Under the pieces are notes generated by a model. The model was not told where the DNA came from, did no database searches, and saw nothing but the letters and a program-made list of their open reading frames with translations. A DNA stretch of 64,000 nucleotides from an uncultured virus (IMG/VR IMGVR_UViG_3300044612_002689) (taxonomy: Duplodnaviria > Heunggongvirae > Uroviricota > Caudoviricetes), in IMG/VR virus record IMGVR_UViG_3300044612_002689. One strand, given 5' to 3'. The position numbers and the translations under genes were made by a program. Below are positions 4,771 through 47,898 of the stretch, one piece after another; within the stretch, counting starts at the first letter, position 1, and each line of letters begins with the position of its first letter.

Positions 4771-4843
4771 GGTCCCGTGGTTGAATGGTTACAATTCCAC
4801 CCTGTCACGGTGCGAGATACGGGTTCGAATCCCGTCGGGACCG
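4771..4843 (+). tRNA. tRNA-Asp(GTC)
   Basis: Cloverleaf: GGTCCCG/CGGGACC acceptor, loop CTGTCAC, T-arm ACGGG-TTCGAAT-CCCGT, discriminator G; CCA not encoded. Confidence 0.92.
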
Positions 4844-4867
4844 CAAAACTTATTAAAATTAAAAAAT

Positions 4868-5985: not shown

Positions 5986-6306
5986 ATGGGAATCTTTGAT
6001 AAAGATTATTTATTGATCAAATCACAAACTACGGGATTTTCTTCCCCAGCAGAAACATATGTTGATAAAAGATTGGACTTAAATGAATTGATAGTGGATG
6101 ATTCATATTCCACATTCTATTTCAGATATTCTGGACCAAACATTGAAGATATCAAACCCGGTGATACTTTAGTTATCGATAGAAATAAAAAATTAAAAAC
6201 AGGTGACTTGATTATTATTGTTGAAGATGGGGTTTTTAAAATAAAACGTTATGAGGATCAAATTAATATATGGGGGAAAATAACATGGATCTTAAAAAAA
6301 GTGTAA
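5986..6306 (+). CDS. umuD: UmuD-like S24 family protein (catalytic Ser apparently lost)
   Basis: GFSSPAETYVDKRLDLNEL, PGDTLVIDR, GDLII; adjacent to umuC. Confidence 0.8.
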   Translation: MGIFDKDYLLIKSQTTGFSSPAETYVDKRLDLNELIVDDSYSTFYFRYSGPNIEDIKPGDTLVIDRNKKLKTGDLIIIVEDGVFKIKRYEDQINIWGKITWILKKV

Positions 6307-7502
6307 AAGTAATTGGTATTGTGGATTGCAATAATTTTTATTGCTCATGTGAAAGATTGTTTAATCCAGAATCGGTCGGTAAACCAACAGTTGTTTTATC
6401 AAATAATGATGGGGCAATAATTGCCCGATCACAAGAAGCAAAAGATTTAGGAATTAAAATGGGGGAACCATTTTTTAAATCTAAAGAATTCATGGAAGAA
6501 CACAAATTCTGTGTTTATTCTTCAAACTATAACCTTTATGGGGATCTTTCTGACCGGGTAATGAAAGTTATTTCTGAGTTTGTTACCAATATTGAAGTGT
6601 ATTCAATTGATGAAGCATTCATAGACCTATCTCATATACCTTCTAAAAAATTGAATCAAACCTTAATAAAAATCAAGGATGAGGTTCTAAGACGGGTTGG
6701 AATACCAGTGTCTATTGGTGTTGGACCAAATAAAACATTGGCAAAATTGACCTCATACATGGCAAAAAAACAACCAAACTATGATGGAATATGTTCTTAC
6801 TGGAGTTTGAAAAATTTTAAATCAATTTCATACAAAATTGATATTAACGAAGTTTGGGGTGTTGGAAGAAAATGGACAAAAAAATTGAAAAATCTTGGTA
6901 TTGAAAGTATTGGTCAATTCATAGACACTAATGAAAACTTAGTAAAAAAGTTGATGAATATTAATGGTGTGAGAACTAAATTAGAATTACAAGAATTTTA
7001 TTGTTTTCAGATCCAAGAAAAAACTAAGTTGAAAAAAAATATTGCATCCACCAGATCATTTGGAAAAGATGTTGATGATTTTAGTCAGTTGTCTGAGGCT
7101 ATGTTTAGTTATATAGAAACGGGGACTAAAAAATTAAAACAAAATAAAGTATTAAGTAAAAAAGTCACAATTTTTGTTAGTGGTAATTACCATAAGGGAA
7201 ACAAGTACCATTATTCAAAAACAATTTCTTTAAATACACCAACTCGAGATAATCAATTAATCTGGTCGCAAATATATAAATCATTTAAAGAGTTGTGTGA
7301 ACAAAACAAACAATATAAAAAGTGTGGAATAATCTTTAATGATTTAACTCCAGACAATGTCATACAAAAGTCTTTATTTGATGAAGTTTTTGAAACTCAA
7401 TCAGTACCAAACAATCCAGTTAAAAATTGGCACATGAGACAAGAGTTTCTTACACAAAAATATACCACATCCTGGGACGATTTACCTGAAGTTTTTTCTT
7501 AA
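6285..7502 (+). CDS. umuC: Y-family DNA polymerase V catalytic subunit
   Basis: VDCNNFYCSCE, VVLSNNDG, SSNYNLYGDLS, YSIDEAF, GPNKTLAK, C-terminal YTTSWDDLP; start uncertain (6270 or 6285). Confidence 0.92.
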   Translation: MDLKKSVKVIGIVDCNNFYCSCERLFNPESVGKPTVVLSNNDGAIIARSQEAKDLGIKMGEPFFKSKEFMEEHKFCVYSSNYNLYGDLSDRVMKVISEFVTNIEVYSIDEAFIDLSHIPSKKLNQTLIKIKDEVLRRVGIPVSIGVGPNKTLAKLTSYMAKKQPNYDGICSYWSLKNFKSISYKIDINEVWGVGRKWTKKLKNLGIESIGQFIDTNENLVKKLMNINGVRTKLELQEFYCFQIQEKTKLKKNIASTRSFGKDVDDFSQLSEAMFSYIETGTKKLKQNKVLSKKVTIFVSGNYHKGNKYHYSKTISLNTPTRDNQLIWSQIYKSFKELCEQNKQYKKCGIIFNDLTPDNVIQKSLFDEVFETQSVPNNPVKNWHMRQEFLTQKYTTSWDDLPEVFS

Positions 7503-27632: not shown

Positions 27633-28097
27633 ATGGAATTAGAAAGAGCACACTTTTTGGCAAATCAACTTATGAACCAACATGGAATTTCACAAAAAGG
27701 ATGGAAATTTTCATTCGACAATGCGAGAAGGAGATTTGGTTGTTGTTCATATAGAAAAAAACAAATTTCTTTATCCAGACCCTTGACGTTACTGAATTCA
27801 GAGAGTGAGGTTAGGAATACTATTCTACATGAAATTGCACATGCTTTAACTAAAGGACATCATCATGATCGTGTTTGGAAAGCAAAGGCAAAAGAAATTG
27901 GATGCACTGGTGATAGGTGTTATAATTCTAAACTAGTAAAAACTCCTGAACCAAAATATATTGCATCTTGTAAAACTTGTGGCACAATTCACAAAAGAAA
28001 TAGATTAACATCTGGAACATTTTCATGTGGTGTTTGTTCAAGATCAGTTTTTAATCCGGAGTTTATAATTAATTTTGAGTTGAATCCAAAGTATTAA
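27633..28097 (+). CDS. SprT-like zinc metalloprotease
   Basis: RRFGCC, TILHEIAHAL..HH..W, C-terminal CxxC..CxxC. Confidence 0.85.
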   Translation: MELERAHFLANQLMNQHGISQKGWKFSFDNARRRFGCCSYRKKQISLSRPLTLLNSESEVRNTILHEIAHALTKGHHHDRVWKAKAKEIGCTGDRCYNSKLVKTPEPKYIASCKTCGTIHKRNRLTSGTFSCGVCSRSVFNPEFIINFELNPKY

Positions 28098-39325: not shown

Positions 39326-40324
39326 ATGAAAAAAATTATAAGACTAACAGAAAGAGATTTAACTCGTATTGTTAAAAGAATCATTAAAGAAAATGATGAT
39401 CAAGAAAATGATGATCAATCTATTATTAAAGAAAAAATAGATAGTTTGAAAAAAACCGAAAATAAATATTATAATATTGACAATGATAACGTTGATCTTG
39501 TTGCCAAAAAATTTGGCAAACTGTTAGCGGTAAGCAAAGAATTTTTTTATCCTGGAATTTACAAAATTAATGAAACGGACGAAGATAATTTTAGAGAGAT
39601 TTGGAATAACATAACAAATGATACGGTTGAAAACGTAAAAATAGTTGAGTTTGATTATTAGAGTTTGTTAATTAACATAAACGGTGGGGTTTTTTTAAAA
39701 GTATATTTATAAATAAAAATTATGAAAAAAATAATTAGACTTACAGAAAGAGATTTAACTCGTATTGTGATGAAAGTTTTAAATGAATCTCCCGATCCTG
39801 AAAAAGACTTCATCTTAACTAAAGATGAAATGACTTGTATGAATGGGTATTTCAAAAAACCATACACTAGATCTGAGTACGGATGGTTAAAGAGTGAAGA
39901 TGGAAAACAAATACATTTTGGTAAAATAGAAAATACCTATCTTAAAAATTATTGTAAGTTTGATATTAATAATAGACCAATAAATTCCAATAAAGAGTTT
40001 GGGAGATTTGATTATAACGATACTACAGGTGTTGTAACTTTAGGCCCCCTTAATAGTTTATTTTAATAAAGGAATATAATTATGAAAAAAATAGTTAGAC
40101 TTACAGAATCAGATTTAACAAGAATTGTTAAACTTGTGATCAATGAAGATGTGGACTCTCTTAAAGGAGATGCCCGTAGAATACTTATGAGACTTGGATA
40201 TAGTCCGACACTACTTAAAGATTATACAAAAGAAGAATTGGCCAAAGCACTTAGACGAGAAAACAAAAAAAGGTTTAGTGTACATGATGAATGGGAAAAC
40301 TTGGCCGATAAATTGCATAAGTAA
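39326..40324 (+). repeat. Three tandem genes with MKKI(I/V)RLTExDLTRIV leader
   Basis: 39326, 39722, 40082 share ~50 nt of 5' sequence and then diverge completely. Confidence 0.85.
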
Positions 40325-40880
40325 TATTTAAATCCCCCACCTCATCAGTGGGGTTTTTTGTTTAACAATTTGTGGTGGTATTTATTATAAAAATATTACT
40401 ATGGAAAAATTGAATTTTAATGAAATGTTAAATAAGTGTTGGGAAACTGCACTTGGAATGACAAAAATGGCAAAACTTTACCAGGGTTCATCACCTCATG
40501 ATCTAAGTTTTATCCATTGTATCTTCAGAGGTAACGATGAATATGCGACAATTATGGTTAACTGTACTTGTGAAGGTAAGATCAGCATTCAAACCGTTGA
40601 TAGTCCATACTTGGATGATCTAGTTATTCATCCACCCCTTCAAATGACACAAGAGGAATCTGAACAATATTTGATTGATGCTGGTTATACCGGTCGTTGG
40701 TCAGTTGTTTTGTTGAGAGCCCCGTTGTATTCGGTTAAGTATCCACCACTTTATATCTATACTGTGGAAAATGTCGGATACATTGCCGTCGATTCAACGG
40801 ACGGAACAAATGTTTTTCAATTATATTAAAATTAACCCCCATAATTGGGGGTTTTTTCTTTTATATCATATTTATCTTAT

Positions 40881-41495
40881 ATGAGAAGAATTACAGAATC
40901 AGAGTTGATTAGACTGGTCAGACGAGTTATTAAAGAAGAAACATCCGGTCATGGGGATTTTATTGAAACCTTGAGATCAAACTTTAATATGTCAGATGAA
41001 TTGGTTGGTTTTGTTAGTGACTTCATCGAAAATTCAAATTGTAATAAAATAGAATTTGCAAAATTTAAGTACGCAGCCTTGGGGGCGTCCCTTCATAATG
41101 GGGTATTAATTAATGATGTGGTTTTACGTGGTTCATTGGAAGTTGCATTGTTTTCAATATTTCATGAGATTGCTCATCAGTACCAATATAAGAAATATGG
41201 TATTGAAAAAATGTATGAATTTTATAACGATGAAATATCGGTTATTGAGACCGCAAAATTTATGAAGGAAGTTGAAACGGTTGCCGATAGTTTTGCATCC
41301 CGAAAAATTAGAGAACTTCAAAAAATGGGTTTGATCAGTAGAAACTTTGTTCCAATTGAAATGTATAAAAATGTTTCCGAATCTCAACTTGCTCATTTTA
41401 TTACTAAAATTAGATCAGAACTAAGGTCCAATAATATTTATTCTCCGGATGATATTAGCGAGTATTATTATAACTTGATGAAAGACCAACTTTAG
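40881..41495 (+). CDS. Putative zinc metallopeptidase with leader
   Basis: MRRITESELIRLVRRVIKEE leader; FHEIAHQYQ..E..AD.FA. Confidence 0.6.
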   Translation: MRRITESELIRLVRRVIKEETSGHGDFIETLRSNFNMSDELVGFVSDFIENSNCNKIEFAKFKYAALGASLHNGVLINDVVLRGSLEVALFSIFHEIAHQYQYKKYGIEKMYEFYNDEISVIETAKFMKEVETVADSFASRKIRELQKMGLISRNFVPIEMYKNVSESQLAHFITKIRSELRSNNIYSPDDISEYYYNLMKDQL

Positions 41496-41512: not shown

Positions 41513-41544
41513 TTTGATAATATAGATATTTTCATTTAGTTTTG
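41513..41544 (+). promoter_or_regulatory. Bacteroidota-type promoter
   Basis: TTTG-N20-TAGTTTTG before ATG 41551. Confidence 0.7.
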
Positions 41545-41550
41545 AAAAAG

Positions 41551-42180
41551 ATGGAAAAAAAGGTTTGCACAAAATGTGGTGAAGAAAAAGTTCTCACAGA
41601 GTTTAATAAAAATAAACGACAATCTGATAACTTTTCCCCACAATGTAAATTGTGTAGATCAGCAGAAAGAAAAAAATATTACGCAAAAAATAAAACTCGA
41701 GAACTTGAAAAAATAAAAGAATATCAAGTATTAAATAAAGATTCAATATCTAATCAACGAAAAAAATATAGAAAAGATAATCGAAAGGTTTTATCGGCAA
41801 AACACAAAGATTACATCAAACAAAGAAAATTGATTGATCCCATTTTTAAATTGAAGGAAAGAGTTAGATCCAAAATTCGAAAATCATTGTCCAAATTTAA
41901 GTCATCGAAACAACTCAAGACAATTGAAATTCTTGGGTGTGATCATGGTGAGTTTAAGTCACATATTGAATCCCAATTTGAACTTTGGATGACCTGGGAT
42001 AATTATGGTCTTTATAATGGAAAATTGAATTTTGGTTGGGACCTGGATCATATTATACCTTTGTCATCAGCCGTCACAAAGGAAGATGTTTTTAAACTTA
42101 ACCATTATACAAATTTTCAGCCCCTATGTTCTCACATTAATAGAAACGTCAAAAAAAATTCTTTAACATGGAAATCCTAG
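41551..42180 (+). CDS. HNH-like endonuclease with N-terminal Zn finger (paralog of 36671)
   Basis: KVCTKC..CKLC; MTWDNYG..WDLDHIIPLS..NHYTNFQPLC. Confidence 0.82.
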   Translation: MEKKVCTKCGEEKVLTEFNKNKRQSDNFSPQCKLCRSAERKKYYAKNKTRELEKIKEYQVLNKDSISNQRKKYRKDNRKVLSAKHKDYIKQRKLIDPIFKLKERVRSKIRKSLSKFKSSKQLKTIEILGCDHGEFKSHIESQFELWMTWDNYGLYNGKLNFGWDLDHIIPLSSAVTKEDVFKLNHYTNFQPLCSHINRNVKKNSLTWKS

Positions 42181-42239
42181 GTTGGAACACCCGTTCCGGA
42201 CTTCGTCCGAATATTTTTTAAAAATATTTTGAAAAAAAA

Positions 42240-42271
42240 TTTGACTATTGAAAAAATTAATTCTAAATTTG
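42240..42271 (+). promoter_or_regulatory. Bacteroidota-type promoter for tnpB-CRISPR unit
   Basis: TTTG-N20-TAAATTTG, 4 nt before ATG 42276. Confidence 0.75.
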
Positions 42272-42275
42272 TACT

Positions 42276-43523
42276 ATGAAAAGAGAAAAAAAGGTTGGAG
42301 TATTAAATAAGGGGTTTAAGTATCGAATATACCCCAATAAAACCCAGATTAAACAAATCGAGGGTGCAATACAAGCGGCAAGGTATGTTCGAAACCTAAC
42401 CATCGATCTTGATCGACAAATATATTCTCTGGGTGGAAAACCAAATTTATCACATTTTGGATTAAATAAACATATAACAAATTATAGAAAATCGGCACCC
42501 TTTTTAAATGATCACGATTCACAGATTTATATGTATGAAATGGAACATTTAAGTAAGGCTTGGTCAGATTTTTTTGATAATACAAAAATCTATAAACAAG
42601 TCATTAAAAACAATCCGAAGACCGATATGAAACGTCCCACACCACCGGATTTTACAAAAAAGAATGACCAAAAACAAAGTTTTACAACACGATTAATTAA
42701 TACTAATATACAAAAACACGGAATAAAAGAAGATGGTAAGTTAACTTTACCAAAAATTACTGGAAATATCAAAGTCCAATATCATAGACCAATTATTGGA
42801 ATTCCAAAAAAATATACGATTTCCAAAAAACATGGAAAGTACTATGTGTCAATTTTGGTAGAATATAAGAACGATGTTTCAAAAAAGGAAGTCAAGTCTG
42901 TGGTTGGTATCGATGCGGGTGTAAAATCTTTGATTGTTACATCAGAAAATGAAGTTATTAAAAATCCAAAATACCTGAACCAACATTTAAATCATTTGTC
43001 AAAATTGATAAGTAATAGGGACAAATGTGTAAAGTACTCTAACAACTGGAAAAAGTTGAATAAAAAAGTTCATGTTTTAGAAGAAAAAATATCAAACTGT
43101 AGAAAAAATTATAATCACAATGTATCCAAAAGACTGGTCGATCAATATGATTTGATTTGTATGGAAGATTTGGATCTTGTTGAAATGACGAAATCAAATA
43201 AAGGTACCGTTGAAAATCCTGGTACCAACGTTAAACAAAAATCAAACTTAAATCGAAATATTTTGGACGCTGGTCTTGGGATGTTACGTGAAATGATTAT
43301 TTATAAAAGTGTCTCCAGCGGGAAACACACAATTAAAGTGGATAGATTTTTTCCATCAAGCAAGAAATGTAATAATTGCGGTACGGTGAATGAAAATCTA
43401 CTTTTATCTCAACGGGTTTGGGAATGTAAAAACTGCAAAAGCGAAATTGATCGTGATTACAATGCGGCTTTAAACATTCGGGACTTAGGTAAGAAAATGT
43501 TCTTTGAAAATTTAGAAAATTAG
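42276..43523 (+). CDS. tnpB: TnpB-like RNA-guided RuvC nuclease (candidate miniature type V effector)
   Basis: FKYRIYPN N-terminus; RuvC-I GIDAG, RuvC-II MEDL, CNNC..CKNC Zn finger, RuvC-III DRDYNAALNI; CRISPR array 110 bp downstream. Confidence 0.93.
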   Translation: MKREKKVGVLNKGFKYRIYPNKTQIKQIEGAIQAARYVRNLTIDLDRQIYSLGGKPNLSHFGLNKHITNYRKSAPFLNDHDSQIYMYEMEHLSKAWSDFFDNTKIYKQVIKNNPKTDMKRPTPPDFTKKNDQKQSFTTRLINTNIQKHGIKEDGKLTLPKITGNIKVQYHRPIIGIPKKYTISKKHGKYYVSILVEYKNDVSKKEVKSVVGIDAGVKSLIVTSENEVIKNPKYLNQHLNHLSKLISNRDKCVKYSNNWKKLNKKVHVLEEKISNCRKNYNHNVSKRLVDQYDLICMEDLDLVEMTKSNKGTVENPGTNVKQKSNLNRNILDAGLGMLREMIIYKSVSSGKHTIKVDRFFPSSKKCNNCGTVNENLLLSQRVWECKNCKSEIDRDYNAALNIRDLGKKMFFENLEN

Positions 43524-43633
43524 GAAACAAAAACTGGGTGGTGTGACATCCAATTTAATTGTGGTCAAAACTCAATTTGTGGGTTTATAATGACAACAAG
43601 AGCCTTTCATTTATTATGTTTCCAAAATACACA
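43523..43633 (+). ncRNA. Candidate tracrRNA/omegaRNA-like scaffold
   Basis: Closing stem GGAAACA/TGTTTCC, two hairpins and three patches complementary to the repeat. Confidence 0.55.
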
Positions 43634-44051
43634 GTTGTGTGTGATCTTTATTTGAAGGGTAATCACAACGGAGGAAGAGTGTAGAAGACAACTTATCGCG
43701 TTGTGTATGATCTTTATTTGAAGGGTAATCACAACGGGGATTTGGGTTAGCGCTTCCTTTTTCAAGTTGTGTATGATCTTTATTTGAAGGGTAATCACAA
43801 CGCTCAACGGTTTGCCGATTAATAGAAAACAGTTGTGTATGATCTTTATTTGAAGGGTAATCACAACGAGATGGAAAGTGCTGTATAACAACCTAAAGTT
43901 GTGTATGATCTTTATTTGAAGGGTAATCACAACAAATTAAGGTCGCACAATCGTTTGTTTTGAGTTGTGTATGGTCTTTATTTGTAGGGTAATCACAACA
44001 AATCTATCTACATTTAAATTTTCTGAAAGTTGTATATGATCTGTATTTGAA
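43634..44051 (+). CRISPR. CRISPR array: 6 full 36-bp repeats plus 1 truncated degenerate repeat, 6 spacers (5 x 30 nt, 1 x 29 nt)
   Basis: Consensus GTTGTGTATGATCTTTATTTGAAGGGTAATCACAAC at 43634, 43700, 43766, 43832, 43898, 43964; partial at 44029. Confidence 0.97.
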
Positions 44052-44062
44052 TTTATTATATT

Positions 44063-44093
44063 AAAACCCCATCTTTAACAGGTGGGGTTTTTT
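44063..44093 (+). terminator. Intrinsic terminator closing the CRISPR transcript
   Basis: AAAACCCCATCT-TTAAC-AGGTGGGGTTTT plus T-run. Confidence 0.85.
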
Positions 44094-44127
44094 ATTTATC
44101 GTGATATTTATTTTAAAGAGTTAAATT

Positions 44128-44472
44128 ATGAAAAACGTACTTATATATTTGGTTTTTATTTCATTACTATTTTCATGTAAAAAAAAGGAAGTAGAGCCAC
44201 AAAGAAATGTCACATATAAAATCCAGTGTTCGGATTGTTATGTTTATTATAAAGAAAACGGAAAACCAAAATCAGAATTTCATCAAAACTCAACCTGGTC
44301 TCATAACTTTGTTGGAATGAAAGACAGTTTGGTTTTGGTGTATGCCATGAACACCTCAGGTCAAAATCAATTTGTTTCTGCAACAATTCTATTGAATGGT
44401 GACACATTGAAACACGCGACCGGGAGTTGTCCGATATCTGGAACCGTTGCGGTATCTGATACTCTTCGTTAA
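44128..44472 (+). CDS. Lipoprotein
   Basis: MKNVLIYLVFISLLFS-CKKKE lipobox. Confidence 0.75.
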   Translation: MKNVLIYLVFISLLFSCKKKEVEPQRNVTYKIQCSDCYVYYKENGKPKSEFHQNSTWSHNFVGMKDSLVLVYAMNTSGQNQFVSATILLNGDTLKHATGSCPISGTVAVSDTLR

Positions 44473-45739: not shown

Positions 45740-47898
45740 ATGAAAAAAGTTATAAGATTAACTGAATCCGAACTTGTACGGTTGGTTAAGAGAACCATTC
45801 AAGAAATGGAGAATCAAAATAACGGATCTGTTGGAGGTACTGTCAAAAGTTTGGCAAAACGAGATATGACACCCACAGAAAAAAAAGATTGGGTGGGTTT
45901 GTATGAACTAACTCAAAATGATAATACAAATTTTGAAATTCTGACTGTTAAGGGATCTCCGTCAGTTGGTGGGGTTTCAAAAAACTTGAAAGGAAAATAT
46001 TTAAAACCGACCGATTATATTAAGGTTCCTAACTCTGGGGATGAGGTTTATTTTAAACCGAGTACAGGTTTCAGATATGAGGCATATGTTTATAATGAAG
46101 GTGGTGTCATAAAATTTGGATTTGCAACAGAATAATTTATGAAAAAAGTTATAAGATTAACTGAAACTCAATTGATCCGACTCATCAAAGAATCCATTGA
46201 AAATAATAATTTAAAAAGTGAGGAAAACTTTTTTAAAAGACGAGGGGTTGATCTAGAAAAACTCGAAGAAATGATTTATTTTCAAGAGTCAATTCAAGAA
46301 GTAGAAAATTTTGATGATGGGGATGAGTTTGCCGAATTTTGTATTTATACTGCAGTTGGTTTTTATTTCGGTGGTGAAGGATACACTGATGACGATGATG
46401 ATGATTGGGGTGATAGTTGGGATGAAGATGAAGAAACAGAAAAAAACGAAAATAACTTACCCCCAGAATCGGCATATGAAGTTAGAGATGAATTGGAAGA
46501 ATACTTGTATGAAAAATACTTTAATGAATTAAAAGTGAACTTTGACGACTATATATCCGGAAAATCTTAATTGTATCTAAGTTTAAAAACTCCCCCACCT
46601 CATCAAGTGGGGGTTTTTGTTTTTCATATATTTATAATATATGAAGATTGTTATAACAGAATCTCAATTTCAATTTATTAGAAGATACCAAGAAATTAAA
46701 GATTGGGTTAGTGATGACTATAATTATTTATTGAAAAGAGGACACTCACCATATGATGCAAAAGATATGACAATAGATCACTCCCCATGGACATATTTAA
46801 ATGATTCCGATACTGACATTGAGAACAATAAAAAAAATTTTGATAAGTTACGACGATTCATTGAAAAAAATTTTGAAGATTTAATTAGTTAATATGAAAG
46901 TCATTATCACAGAAAATCAACTATTTATTTTTAGACGAATCCAAGAGTTTATTGATATTGTTGAAAAACAGATTAAAGGATATGAAAAACAAGAAGATAA
47001 TCCGTGGTGGTGTAAACACAACAACCCCGAGTCTTTTTTTGATAATCTTAAAGGAAGATCTATTGAAATATTTGTTGATCAGAATTGGGATTTTTTTCAT
47101 GACGATAGTGAAACTGGGGGAGCCAATATGGACACTCAAATATTGTATGACATTGTTAATAAAGAATATGGAAACTATATTCGAAATCTTTTTGTTCGTA
47201 AATGTGGTTATTCGCGTTTTTAATTAATATTTATAGAATATGAAATTTGTAATCAACGAGTCCCAATACAATTTTATTAGAAGAGTTGGTATCATAGAAG
47301 ACCTTTTTAAAAAATATGTTGACGACGATGAATTTATTTATAGAGTTTTTGACACTGGACCAGGTGCTTTTGGAACACATAAAGTAGGATTAGATGAATT
47401 TATACCATTTGTATCGTACACAATTGCACATCAAATCGCAAAAAGCGAAATGAATCCAAGAGATGACGACGACAACGATGACTTTGTAACTTACAGAAAT
47501 CAGTTACAAAGGTTTATTCAAACAAATTATTACGATTACCTAAAAAAAAGACACCAAGAAACCCTAATGTAAAAATGAAAATTTTAATTTCCGAATCACA
47601 ATATTATTTATTAAGAAGGATGTCATACATGAATGATGTCATAAATAAGCACCTTGATGACTTTAAACACAATTTAGACCCAAAAGATTGTGAAAAAATT
47701 AATTTTGACGACTTACTGGAAGGAGTAAAATTCAAAGTAATAAAAGAATTGGAGGAAAACTATTCTGATTTAAGTGGTGATAAAATTTCCATGGTTGATA
47801 AATTTATTGATAACTATAAAAAACAAGAAATTTATGAATCATACTGTGAAATGTGTAATTTTAATTGTGTTGACATCGATAATTTATACGACTTTTAA
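45740..47898 (+). CDS. Run of six short leader-bearing hypothetical proteins (45740, 46139, 46641, 46894, 47240, 47575)
   Basis: MKKVIRLTE or MK(I/V/F)(V/I/L)IxExQ..RR N-termini. Confidence 0.7.
46591..46618 (+). terminator. Intrinsic terminator (near-identical to 40333-40359)
   Basis: CCCCCAC-CTCATCAA-GTGGGGG plus T-run. Confidence 0.75.

Follow-up and report, generated by a model that had tools for sequence, protein, structure and literature searches.

CRISPR arrays have become linked to TnpB nucleases many times, with around 50 independent TnpB-to-CRISPR events counted (PMC12669027). Forty branches of such TnpBs, V-U6 to V-U45, have been described, in which the array is almost always downstream of the gene and mostly without cas1, cas2 or cas4, and these type V-U arrays are said to arise either through duplicated omegaRNA segments or through insertion beside an existing array (PMC10691335). 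Transposon–CRISPR intermediates, which use reRNA as well as CRISPR RNA, have been given the name TranC (PMC13565253; bioRxiv 10.1101/2025.09.28.678669; bioRxiv 10.64898/2026.03.27.714800). Members of TranC clade 9 average 414 amino acids (aa) and have 38-bp repeats, five in number, and an active nuclease of that clade from a Caudoviricetes genome, CauTranC9, has no expansion of the recognition (REC) and wedge (WED) domains, yielded a protospacer-adjacent motif by depletion and has native spacers that match phages (bioRxiv 10.64898/2026.03.27.714800). Here, we analyzed a 64,000-nucleotide (nt) stretch of DNA (the window), which is the minus strand of positions 97718-161717 in the 187,384-base IMG/VR virus record IMGVR_UViG_3300044612_002689 (estimated completeness 64%). 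A single cassette on its plus strand, at 42240-44098, contains a promoter-like element, a nuclease gene, a scaffold, repeats and a terminator, and we think it probable that the phage carries here a CRISPR effector cassette of the TranC or type V-U kind, derived from TnpB. A first-pass annotation, made from the sequence alone, had described it as a candidate new system and as an intermediate between TnpB and Cas12. The second of these descriptions fits, and in the cassette the recently described step that turns a transposon nuclease into a CRISPR effector has a real example. The claim of novelty falls, however, because TnpB-sized, CRISPR-linked clades (V-U6 to V-U45, TranC, CauTranC9) are already in print.

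The linkage between gene and array was assessed among relatives of the nuclease. A protein search identified 22 proteins at 47-100% identity (P0001-P0022), followed by a gap to 39% or less, and alignment-based scans, in which 80 loci were kept from each of viral contigs, metagenome contigs and genomes, gave 17 distinct loci at 40-79% identity. One of these (L094) ends at a contig edge, and in all 16 that have downstream DNA an array lies directly 3' of the gene and is preceded by a recognizably homologous leader or scaffold ('ACTGGGTGGTGTGACATCC...'). Since the gene–scaffold–array layout recurs in 16/16 relatives, it is not due to chance; the single gene–scaffold–array–terminator unit read from the window's sequence is borne out, and the question that the first-pass annotation had set as its own test, whether close homologues keep arrays, is answered in its favor. 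No locus among the 80 from genomes exceeded 34% identity, so that within this set the clade was seen only in viral and metagenome contigs. A wider set of 207 near-full-length TnpB-like open reading frames (ORFs) comprised 156 without an array, 32 with too little downstream DNA, two with repeats upstream only and 17 with a downstream array, the last being the 16 of the clade and the unrelated L122. In a FastTree phylogeny of 190 rows, the 12 distinct array-linked rows formed one clade with a Shimodaira–Hasegawa-like support of 100 (a local measure, in a tree that carried a long-branch warning elsewhere) and a stem of 0.53, nested (81 and 98) among array-less IMG/VR TnpBs. The array label required two changes on this tree, and none of 500 shuffles was as low. 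The conserved adjoining array of V-U and TranC systems is thus present in 16/16 relatives and in one clade. Repeats were also seen beside TnpB genes outside it. In L122 (1569-2059), the TnpB-like gene, which sits on a long branch, is followed after approximately 260 nt by four copies of a different 37-nt repeat (GGCACAACAAGTTTGCAAAACACTAGGTCATTGTCAG), and this may represent another independent TnpB–array link. In L017 (2784-2957) and L052 (2687-2931), three to four spaced repeats (seed GTGCGGATGAT) occur just 5' of array-less sister-group phage TnpB genes.

The 110 nt between the stop codon and repeat 1 (43524-43633) had been called structured from the letters alone, a view that covariation and per-lineage folds both uphold. 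Folds, covariation, a covariance model and duplex prediction place in it an omegaRNA/tracrRNA-like guide-RNA scaffold (43533-43633, plus strand), with computed parts P1 (43535-43552), a P2 hairpin (43559-43599) and an anti-repeat tail (approximately 43602-43633). The folds agree across lineages on P1 (GGGUGG...CAUCC) and on a long P2 hairpin closed by UUGU/ACAA, and in them the (AUU)UGAAAGG core of the repeat is paired to CCUUUCA(AAU) of the tail. From a MAFFT alignment, RNAalifold returned P1 only, with P2 misaligned, and an ungapped subset and a covariance-model alignment were then used. In the ungapped subset, which aligned seven sequences (six distinct) from lineages C, E, F and G, 97.7% of cells were paired over 22 pairs, 10 of which were altered on both sides (0/500 shuffles), with slid controls at 39-55%. 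The covariance model derived from these four lineages recovered the held-out lineages A, B and D at 36-64 bits, scored the window scaffold at 49.3 bits and matched exactly 14 scaffold copies, all of the clade, in 97 sources (662 kb), with no match in approximately 80 array-less TnpB loci. For the 14 copies (13 distinct), in an alignment fitted to its own model, 90.8% of cells were paired and 12/22 pairs were altered on both sides (0/500 shuffles).

Pairing between the scaffold and the repeats was examined with RNAduplex, which predicted an interrupted duplex between the scaffold tail and an internal repeat in 8/8 lineages (-7.6 to -21 kcal/mol), an energy that shuffled repeats matched in 0-17 of 300 trials. 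In most lineages the duplex covers approximately positions 2-28 of the repeat (it is shorter in B, G and E) and leaves the last ~8 nt of the repeat (AAUCACAAC) single-stranded before the guide. Its distal arm covaries, reading ATACACA/TGTGTAT in the window versus ATTCACA/TGTGAAT in L004. The tracr-like scaffold with a repeat-pairing anti-repeat that is expected of V-U and TranC loci was in this way found by computation. Two metagenome loci at 40-41% identity, L091 (1979-2310) and L092 (2620-2950), have a second, gene-less scaffold and array upstream with its own TATATTTG box; the order there is promoter, scaffold, array, gene, scaffold, array, and the gene itself lacks a promoter box. No part of the ORF is therefore required for the scaffold. 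The boundaries of the arrays vary, in that the first unit is the 3' part of the repeat only in lineages G and E and the last unit is the 5' part only in lineages A and B.

The effector is encoded by a 415-aa ORF at 42276-43523 (plus strand) and was assigned as a TnpB-fold RuvC nuclease from Pfam, NCBIfam, AlphaFold2 and Foldseek. Its Pfam matches are OrfB_IS605, Cas12f1-like_TNB and HTH_OrfB_IS605, and the NCBIfam family guided_TnpB matches residues 14-402 (9.9e-82). An alignment of 110 homologues showed D213 (GID), E297 (MED) and D394 (DRD) to be invariant, together with C365, C368 and C384 of the zinc finger, with C387 in at least 90%, and so the RuvC residues and finger are intact, as had been read from the sequence. 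The AlphaFold2 model from the same alignment, which replaced one from 21 close sequences (mean predicted local distance difference test score, pLDDT, 62.5), has a pLDDT of 90.6 and a predicted template-modeling (TM) score of 0.83. Its sole weak stretch is residues 305-323, a flexible KGTVENPG..QKSNL insert, and its C-terminus is a confident helix (pLDDT 86-98). The top Foldseek matches were canonical TnpBs (E 2e-25 to 8e-22, TM 0.71-0.89), including ISDra2 TnpB 8h1j (E 2e-25, TM 0.71/0.81), ISFba1 TnpB 8iaz (TM 0.76/0.81) and 8exa (TM 0.74/0.89, root-mean-square deviation 2.9), with AsCas12f, LaTranC (TM 0.57-0.68) and a partly resolved RdCas12n below them. Consistent with the earlier view of a TnpB-sized protein and not an expanded Cas12, the RuvC fold, the D-E-D triad, the zinc finger and the length of ~400 aa are thus all those of TnpB, and REC/WED expansion is absent. 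By sequence (phmmer), the best solved relative is RdCas12n (9j09; 1.1e-41, residues 72-413), which has the insert in common, followed by ISDra2 TnpB (1.3e-32) and, at lower levels, LaTranC (4e-13). The first-pass annotation had taken KGTVENPG..QKSNLNR as a sign of canonical TnpB; this was mistaken, as ISDra2-type TnpB is without it and it is present in RdCas12n and one TnpB subfamily.

Three other class assignments were tried and rejected. The best PADLOC match, 'Cas12u4' (4e-74), has no diagnostic value, since values of 1e-52 to 1e-64 are reached by four ordinary TnpBs on the same models. Cas12f (V-F) was rejected by fold, the TM scores being 0.58-0.63 to AsCas12f versus 0.71-0.89 to TnpB, with a phmmer value of ~1e-10. 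Cas12n (V-N/V-U4), which according to a preprint averages 544 aa with expanded REC/WED and an unstructured C-terminal tail holding the tracrRNA (trans-activating CRISPR RNA), was rejected given the 415 aa, the ordered C-terminal helix and a scaffold that begins after the stop codon.

The remaining parts of the cassette surround these two. The promoter-like element (42240-42271, plus strand, from the sequence) consists of TTTG (42240-42243), N20 and TAAATTTG (42264-42271), and we take this arrangement, like TAnnTTTG, to be the Bacteroidota promoter consensus. A promoter had been proposed at exactly these positions, and it is supported by the motif and by a TAnnTTTG box 4-5 nt 5' of the start codon in 10/13 related loci (background ~1 per kb), but a sigma-70 promoter scan was at chance level (12 found versus 10.8 expected). 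The element ends 4 nt upstream of the ATG, which implies that the nuclease messenger RNA (mRNA) would be leaderless or nearly so. The array (43634-43999, plus strand; sequence and TRF) has six 36-nt repeats (GTTGTGTATGATCTTTATTTGAAGGGTAATCACAAC) with five 30-nt spacers between them, the repeats lying at 43634-43669, 43700-43735, 43766-43801, 43832-43867, 43898-43933 and 43964-43999 with a period of 66 nt (TRF scores 267-498); repeats 1 and 6 deviate by 1-2 changes. A sixth spacer 3' of repeat 6 (44000-44029) is followed by a truncated seventh repeat (~44029-44052, plus strand, from the sequence) that retains the 5' 23 nt only (GTTGTATATGATCTGTATTTGAA), in agreement with the six repeats and a degenerate one counted previously, and the terminal repeat is truncated in the same way in L002, L083 and L088. 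An intrinsic terminator (44063-44098, plus strand; terminator scan and sequence) closes the cassette with a hairpin at 44063-44091 (12 pairs, five of them G-C) and a T run, and is kept in L002 and L083. The scan gave four terminator-like sites versus 0.7 expected. Rfam identified nothing relevant in 42200-44200, its two weak matches both falling on the terminator.

A likeness of the window repeat to those of type VI-B arrays was tested against genomes. A Bacteroidaceae contig found with a loose pattern (L252) carries a 1205-aa ORF (PADLOC Cas13b, 1.2e-80) flanked by two arrays with 36-nt repeats and 30-nt spacers. With the L252 protein as the query, a Cas13b relative was identified in 4/401 Bacteroidaceae genomes, three of which have an adjoining array, the fourth having none within 14 kb. 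All three arrays read GTTGT...TTTGARRGGTA...ACAAC, and the window array shares this pattern, the 36-nt repeat and the 30-nt spacer with 3/3 of them. Identities counted by hand from the printed repeats were 29/36 and 25/36 between the window repeat and the second and first G419 arrays, respectively, 22/36 between the window repeat and G779, 28/36 between the lineage G repeat and G779, and 26/36 between the lineage F repeat and G927, with G779 and G927 having been reached via the protein and not via the repeat. In L262 (3490-3970), from G779, the first unit of the cas13b-linked array is the 3' part of the repeat only, as in lineages G and E. Other searches were negative: the exact repeat-end pattern gave five single chance matches and zero arrays in 401 Bacteroidota genomes, a 12-nt repeat stretch gave unrelated primer matches only in the literature, and a Cas13b hidden Markov model gave nothing in 201 Bacteroidia genomes, where its controls were silent too, so that this last result is no evidence.

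Among viral contigs, the pattern GGTAATCACAAC-N53-55-GGTAATCACAAC occurs at 21 loci on 14 IMG/VR contigs. Both the nuclease and the scaffold are present at only four of these loci, which lie on contigs of the clade. At L288, the gene of an unrelated 401-aa TnpB is convergent with the array, and the remainder have the same last 14 nt of the repeat with other 5' parts. The arrays of L269, L270, L271 and L275 lie beside type I-F-variant-like genes, namely Cas7fv in all four (1e-11 to 2e-23), Cas3fv/Cas3 domains in three (L269, L275 and, from Pfam alone, L271) and Cas6b in L269 only (1.2e-36). These look like phage-borne type I-F-variant-like systems whose 3' repeat end is common to the TnpB clade, and one repeat family with a common 3' end may thus serve three unrelated effector classes. 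The arrays of L269-L275, L278-L281, L283 and L285-L287 have up to at least 21 repeats (36 nt, with 30-nt spacers) ending AAGGTAATCACAAC, and some of the contigs among L269-L287 are 128-282 kb long with two to three arrays each.

The II-C Cas1 of Flavobacterium columnare acts in trans to load a VI-B array whose repeats are 36 bp long, and the II-C and VI-B repeats have a GTTGT end in common (PMC8092290). By analogy, the common repeat family suggests that the phage arrays may likewise be written by a host integrase. We can go one step further, tentatively and with more doubt than confidence, and speculate that a phage TnpB hooked its omegaRNA onto a ready-made, circulating array family and then evolved the anti-repeat, with host-written guides. 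In that case the array would not have come from a duplicated omegaRNA; the family would serve host VI-B and phage I-F-variant-like systems, and its ...ACAAC end is as in II-C and VI-B. If this were true, host Cas1-Cas2 would write guides during infection for a phage nuclease that has no adaptation genes, a single spacer-loading machinery would supply three unrelated effector classes, and in the unsplit first unit the join would be preserved as a snapshot.

Spacer content differs among even close relatives. No spacer is common to the window and relatives at 75-79% identity, and in near-identical loci of lineage D the scaffold-proximal spacers differ, with a distal one common to L085 and L086, a pattern that looks like polarized turnover. 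Spacers 1-4 of the window have 37-47% G+C versus 30.7% for the phage, a hint that they are foreign in origin. A target was found for one spacer of L087, a relative at 47% identity: nucleotides 1-25 of its spacer 1 match exactly at 27690-27714 of a complete 39,539-bp phage (direct terminal repeats, 57.5% G+C). The site lies within a 115-aa ORF of the head–tail module, on its sense strand, between head-closure and short-tail-fiber/DNA-ejection genes. The match starts at the 5' end of the guide, four of the last five nt are mismatched and none of the other spacers matches this phage. Since the target is on the sense strand, a transcribed spacer cannot pair with the mRNA; this and the restriction of the mismatches to the far end of the guide both agree better, in a single case from a 47%-identity relative, with a DNA target of the TnpB/Cas12 type than with an RNA target. 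Use against competing elements or host DNA had been suggested at the outset: for other phages this match gives one data point, but host DNA has no support.

The other spacer searches were negative. When the 74 spacers of the full set, some of which are array flanks, were compared with the 187 kb of the phage itself and all collected loci, the only matches were to the arrays they came from. Cultured phages yielded no target (nothing for L087 and, for the window array, a best E of 0.4), and the only matches in five related phage records were between repeats. In IMG/VR, exact words of window spacers 1-3 had 0 matches and a word of L004 spacer 2 matched its own arrays only. In a lake-water DNA run (X1), loose ends occur at both edges of spacer 1 (43670-43699), from one contig at each, with flanks ...GTATCCATATCT before it and TAAAGGCGGGG... 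after it. They suggest that the same lake metagenome contains a contig with a spacer-1-like 30-mer outside any array, which would be a possible protospacer.

The stretch is contained in 20 lake-water runs, twelve of which have an identical word share of 0.86 and six of which are metatranscriptomes with 42-56% of its words. In two of the lake metatranscriptome runs, contigs cover 42735-43795, limits that, as contig ends, are not interpretable as transcript ends; some of them bridge the scaffold, repeat 1, spacer 1 and repeat 2, and RNA-library contigs over the scaffold region span 43526-43729, which together hint at expression. X1 covers the entire cassette. In a second DNA run (X3), repeats 1-3 and 5-7 are represented by contigs but spacers 3-4 (43796-43897) by none, which may reflect an array variant in the population; contigs cannot prove absence.

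The record is that of a tailed phage, since the genes outside the window include those of a major head protein (phrog_138, 1.3e-66), portal, large terminase and tail fiber. The first-pass annotation had noted that tnpA, cas1, cas2 and cas4 are missing from the window, and profile searches for Cas1, Cas2, Cas4 and Y1 TnpA extended this to the whole 187-kb record (64% complete). The same record gave no match for Cas3-HD, no second CRISPR-like array and no second copy of the nuclease gene; Cas13b and Cas7fv had no match either, both being weak tests in which control genomes (14 for Cas13b) were silent too. A Bacteroidota host appears plausible from the promoter-like motif and the repeat family; the 57.5% G+C of the L087 target phage versus 30.7% here fits neither reading well. 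Directly upstream of the cassette is an HNH/endonuclease VII-like ORF (phrog_1035, 6.5e-22; 41542-42180, plus strand), and in lineage D (L085 from ~3787 onward, L087, L089) an ORF with a Cys-rich N-terminus that is similar by eye lies directly 3' of the array. Small ORFs at 39722-40324, 40845-41495 and 45740-46570 start with the common motif MKK(I/V)(I/V)RLTE(S/T/R)(D/E/Q)L.R(I/L)(V/I), and copies also occur near the cassettes of L002 and L083; they look like a multi-copy phage gene family. Elsewhere in the window are a tRNA-Asp(GTC) at 4771-4844 and, at 6270-7499, a UmuC-like (Pol V type) polymerase that PHROGs labels simply 'DNA polymerase' and for which a homology search pointed to no host.

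In the mechanism that we propose, a single transcript spanning 42240-44098, promoter to terminator, would carry the nuclease, scaffold and array. The scaffold is predicted to fold into P1 and P2, with its 3' tail as the anti-repeat. As this tail abuts repeat 1, the first unit would fold as anti-repeat, 4-nt loop, repeat and guide, such that scaffold, repeat 1 and spacer 1 would form a natural single-guide RNA, i.e., an omegaRNA whose guide became a spacer. Later repeat–spacer units would form the same interrupted duplex with scaffolds in trans, as CRISPR RNA (crRNA) does with tracrRNA. The nuclease, with scaffold and guide, would bind spacer-matching DNA beside a putative 5' motif and cut it with the RuvC residues D213/E297/D394, its likely targets being other phages or mobile elements in the same cells. 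Spacers would most likely be supplied by host Cas1-Cas2 in trans, the record being without adaptation genes.

Several observations weigh against this account. Experiments on this clade were sought in the literature and none were found. The anti-repeat is occupied by repeat 1 in cis, and scaffolds would have to be freed for repeats 2-6. The fold of scaffold plus repeat 1 as a single sequence is unexceptional (z -1.57, with 14/200 shuffles as good), a cross-lineage duplex matrix was lineage-specific only for D and F, and the 14-copy covariation comes, as noted, from a self-fitted alignment. The repeat family is not exclusive to this nuclease, since the same 3' repeat end occurs without it at 17/21 of the IMG/VR pattern loci. 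The window's six spacers had no target in the searched sets, and only 1/5 spacer words in IMG/VR matched foreign DNA, that one from the 47%-identical relative. Finally, RNA-library contigs can contain DNA and show neither ends nor strand.

Of the other explanations, the one that survives best is that the nuclease uses its scaffold-fused first guide only, the other repeats serving a host Cas13b or type I-F-variant complex or acting as an RNA decoy. The anti-repeat is indeed already paired with repeat 1 in cis, but it tracks the repeat lineage by lineage, and every array of the clade begins at a scaffold, including the gene-less unit of L091/L092. Against the resemblance of the repeats to cas13b arrays (29/36 for window–G419, 28/36 for G–G779 and 26/36 for F–G927) stands the terminal repeat, which is the 5' half only, as Cas13b needs a whole repeat 3' of its spacer; moreover, the sole target is on the sense strand, where a spacer transcript cannot pair in the manner of a Cas13b guide. 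The last 14 nt of the repeat recur exactly beside Cas7fv, Cas6b and Cas3 genes on other phage contigs, whereas no Cas13b, Cas7fv or Cas3 was found in this record (with Cas13b and Cas7fv controls silent). As such, we regard this explanation as unlikely. Alternatively, the same mechanism might have a selfish role, the cassette being an RNA-guided homing element that cuts related phages without it and is copied in by repair. Homology to L002 and L083 is confined to the cassette, from promoter to terminator (42210/42226-44111), with different immediate neighbors, and the endonuclease VII-like gene adjoins it, with the similar ORF 3' of the L085-L089 arrays; such an element would not need six different spacers, however, and it is improbable in view of the fact that the window spacers match none of the five related phage records, that no spacer among the 74 matches any collected locus outside its own array and that the sole target is an unrelated phage of 57.5% GC. 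That an ordinary IS200/IS605 TnpB merely sits beside an unrelated orphan array, for which the TnpB size and fold of the protein could be cited, is very hard to credit when the layout is kept in 16/16 relatives down to 40% identity, scaffold and anti-repeat covary, and the record has no Y1 TnpA that we could find and one copy of the gene.

If the cassette is, as we think probable, a TnpB-derived CRISPR effector, its relatives form a natural series of TnpB-sized effectors, seven lineages from 40% to 94% identity, each with its scaffold, anti-repeat and array boundaries, that would be directly usable for guide-RNA design for a very small programmable nuclease. The unsplit first guide beside split ones in one transcript would bear on how an omegaRNA became tracrRNA plus crRNA. 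If common repeats mean common spacer loading, the adaptation enzymes of the host would serve phages in arming their own nucleases against rival phages.

Compared with known systems, the cassette is alike to the V-U branches in its conserved downstream array and in the general lack of adaptation genes, and to type VI-B arrays in its 36-nt repeats, 30-nt spacers, GTTGT...ACAAC ends, TTTGARRGGTA core and absence of their own cas1/cas2. It differs from type VI-B in that cas13b is at the VI-B locus, whereas in the phage the guide appears to lie 3' of the repeat and the nuclease by the array is, by its sequence, a TnpB-fold DNA nuclease. Cas12r-CRISPR of Thermus Lalka phages is a phage type V system that is expressed in infection (bioRxiv 10.64898/2026.04.20.719267); it is similar, by description only, in being phage-encoded and aimed at other mobile elements and differs in effector lineage and host. 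RdCas12n (PDB 9j09) shares the KGTVENPG..QKS.LNR insert, and LaTranC, which has been solved, is distant in both sequence and fold. The closest resemblance is to TranC, with which the cassette shares a TnpB-derived nuclease, a CRISPR array without cas1/cas2 and an omegaRNA split into a tracr-like part and a repeat. The accessible parts of the TranC literature contained no description that we met of an unsplit natural single-guide first unit, of a second gene-less scaffold and array in one lineage or of a repeat family common to VI-B and I-F-variant arrays. On the basis of description only, CauTranC9 is like the window nuclease (415 aa, TnpB fold, tailed phage) and the two may belong to the same clade, although clade 9 has five 38-bp repeats versus six 36-nt repeats and a truncated one here. 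The TnpBs of ISDra2 and ISFba1 (8h1j, 8exa, 8iaz) are alike in size, RuvC triad and a guide 3' of the scaffold. ISDra2 TnpB differs in having a single, flank-derived guide, and its omegaRNA reportedly overlaps the 3' end of the gene, unlike the window scaffold, which starts after the stop codon. The window nuclease also has the extra loop at 305-323 and stands outside a transposon setting, its gene being single-copy with no Y1_Tnp in 187 kb (no explicit search for insertion-sequence ends was made). In place of a single omegaRNA guide taken from the flank, its scaffold runs into a six-repeat array with variable spacers.

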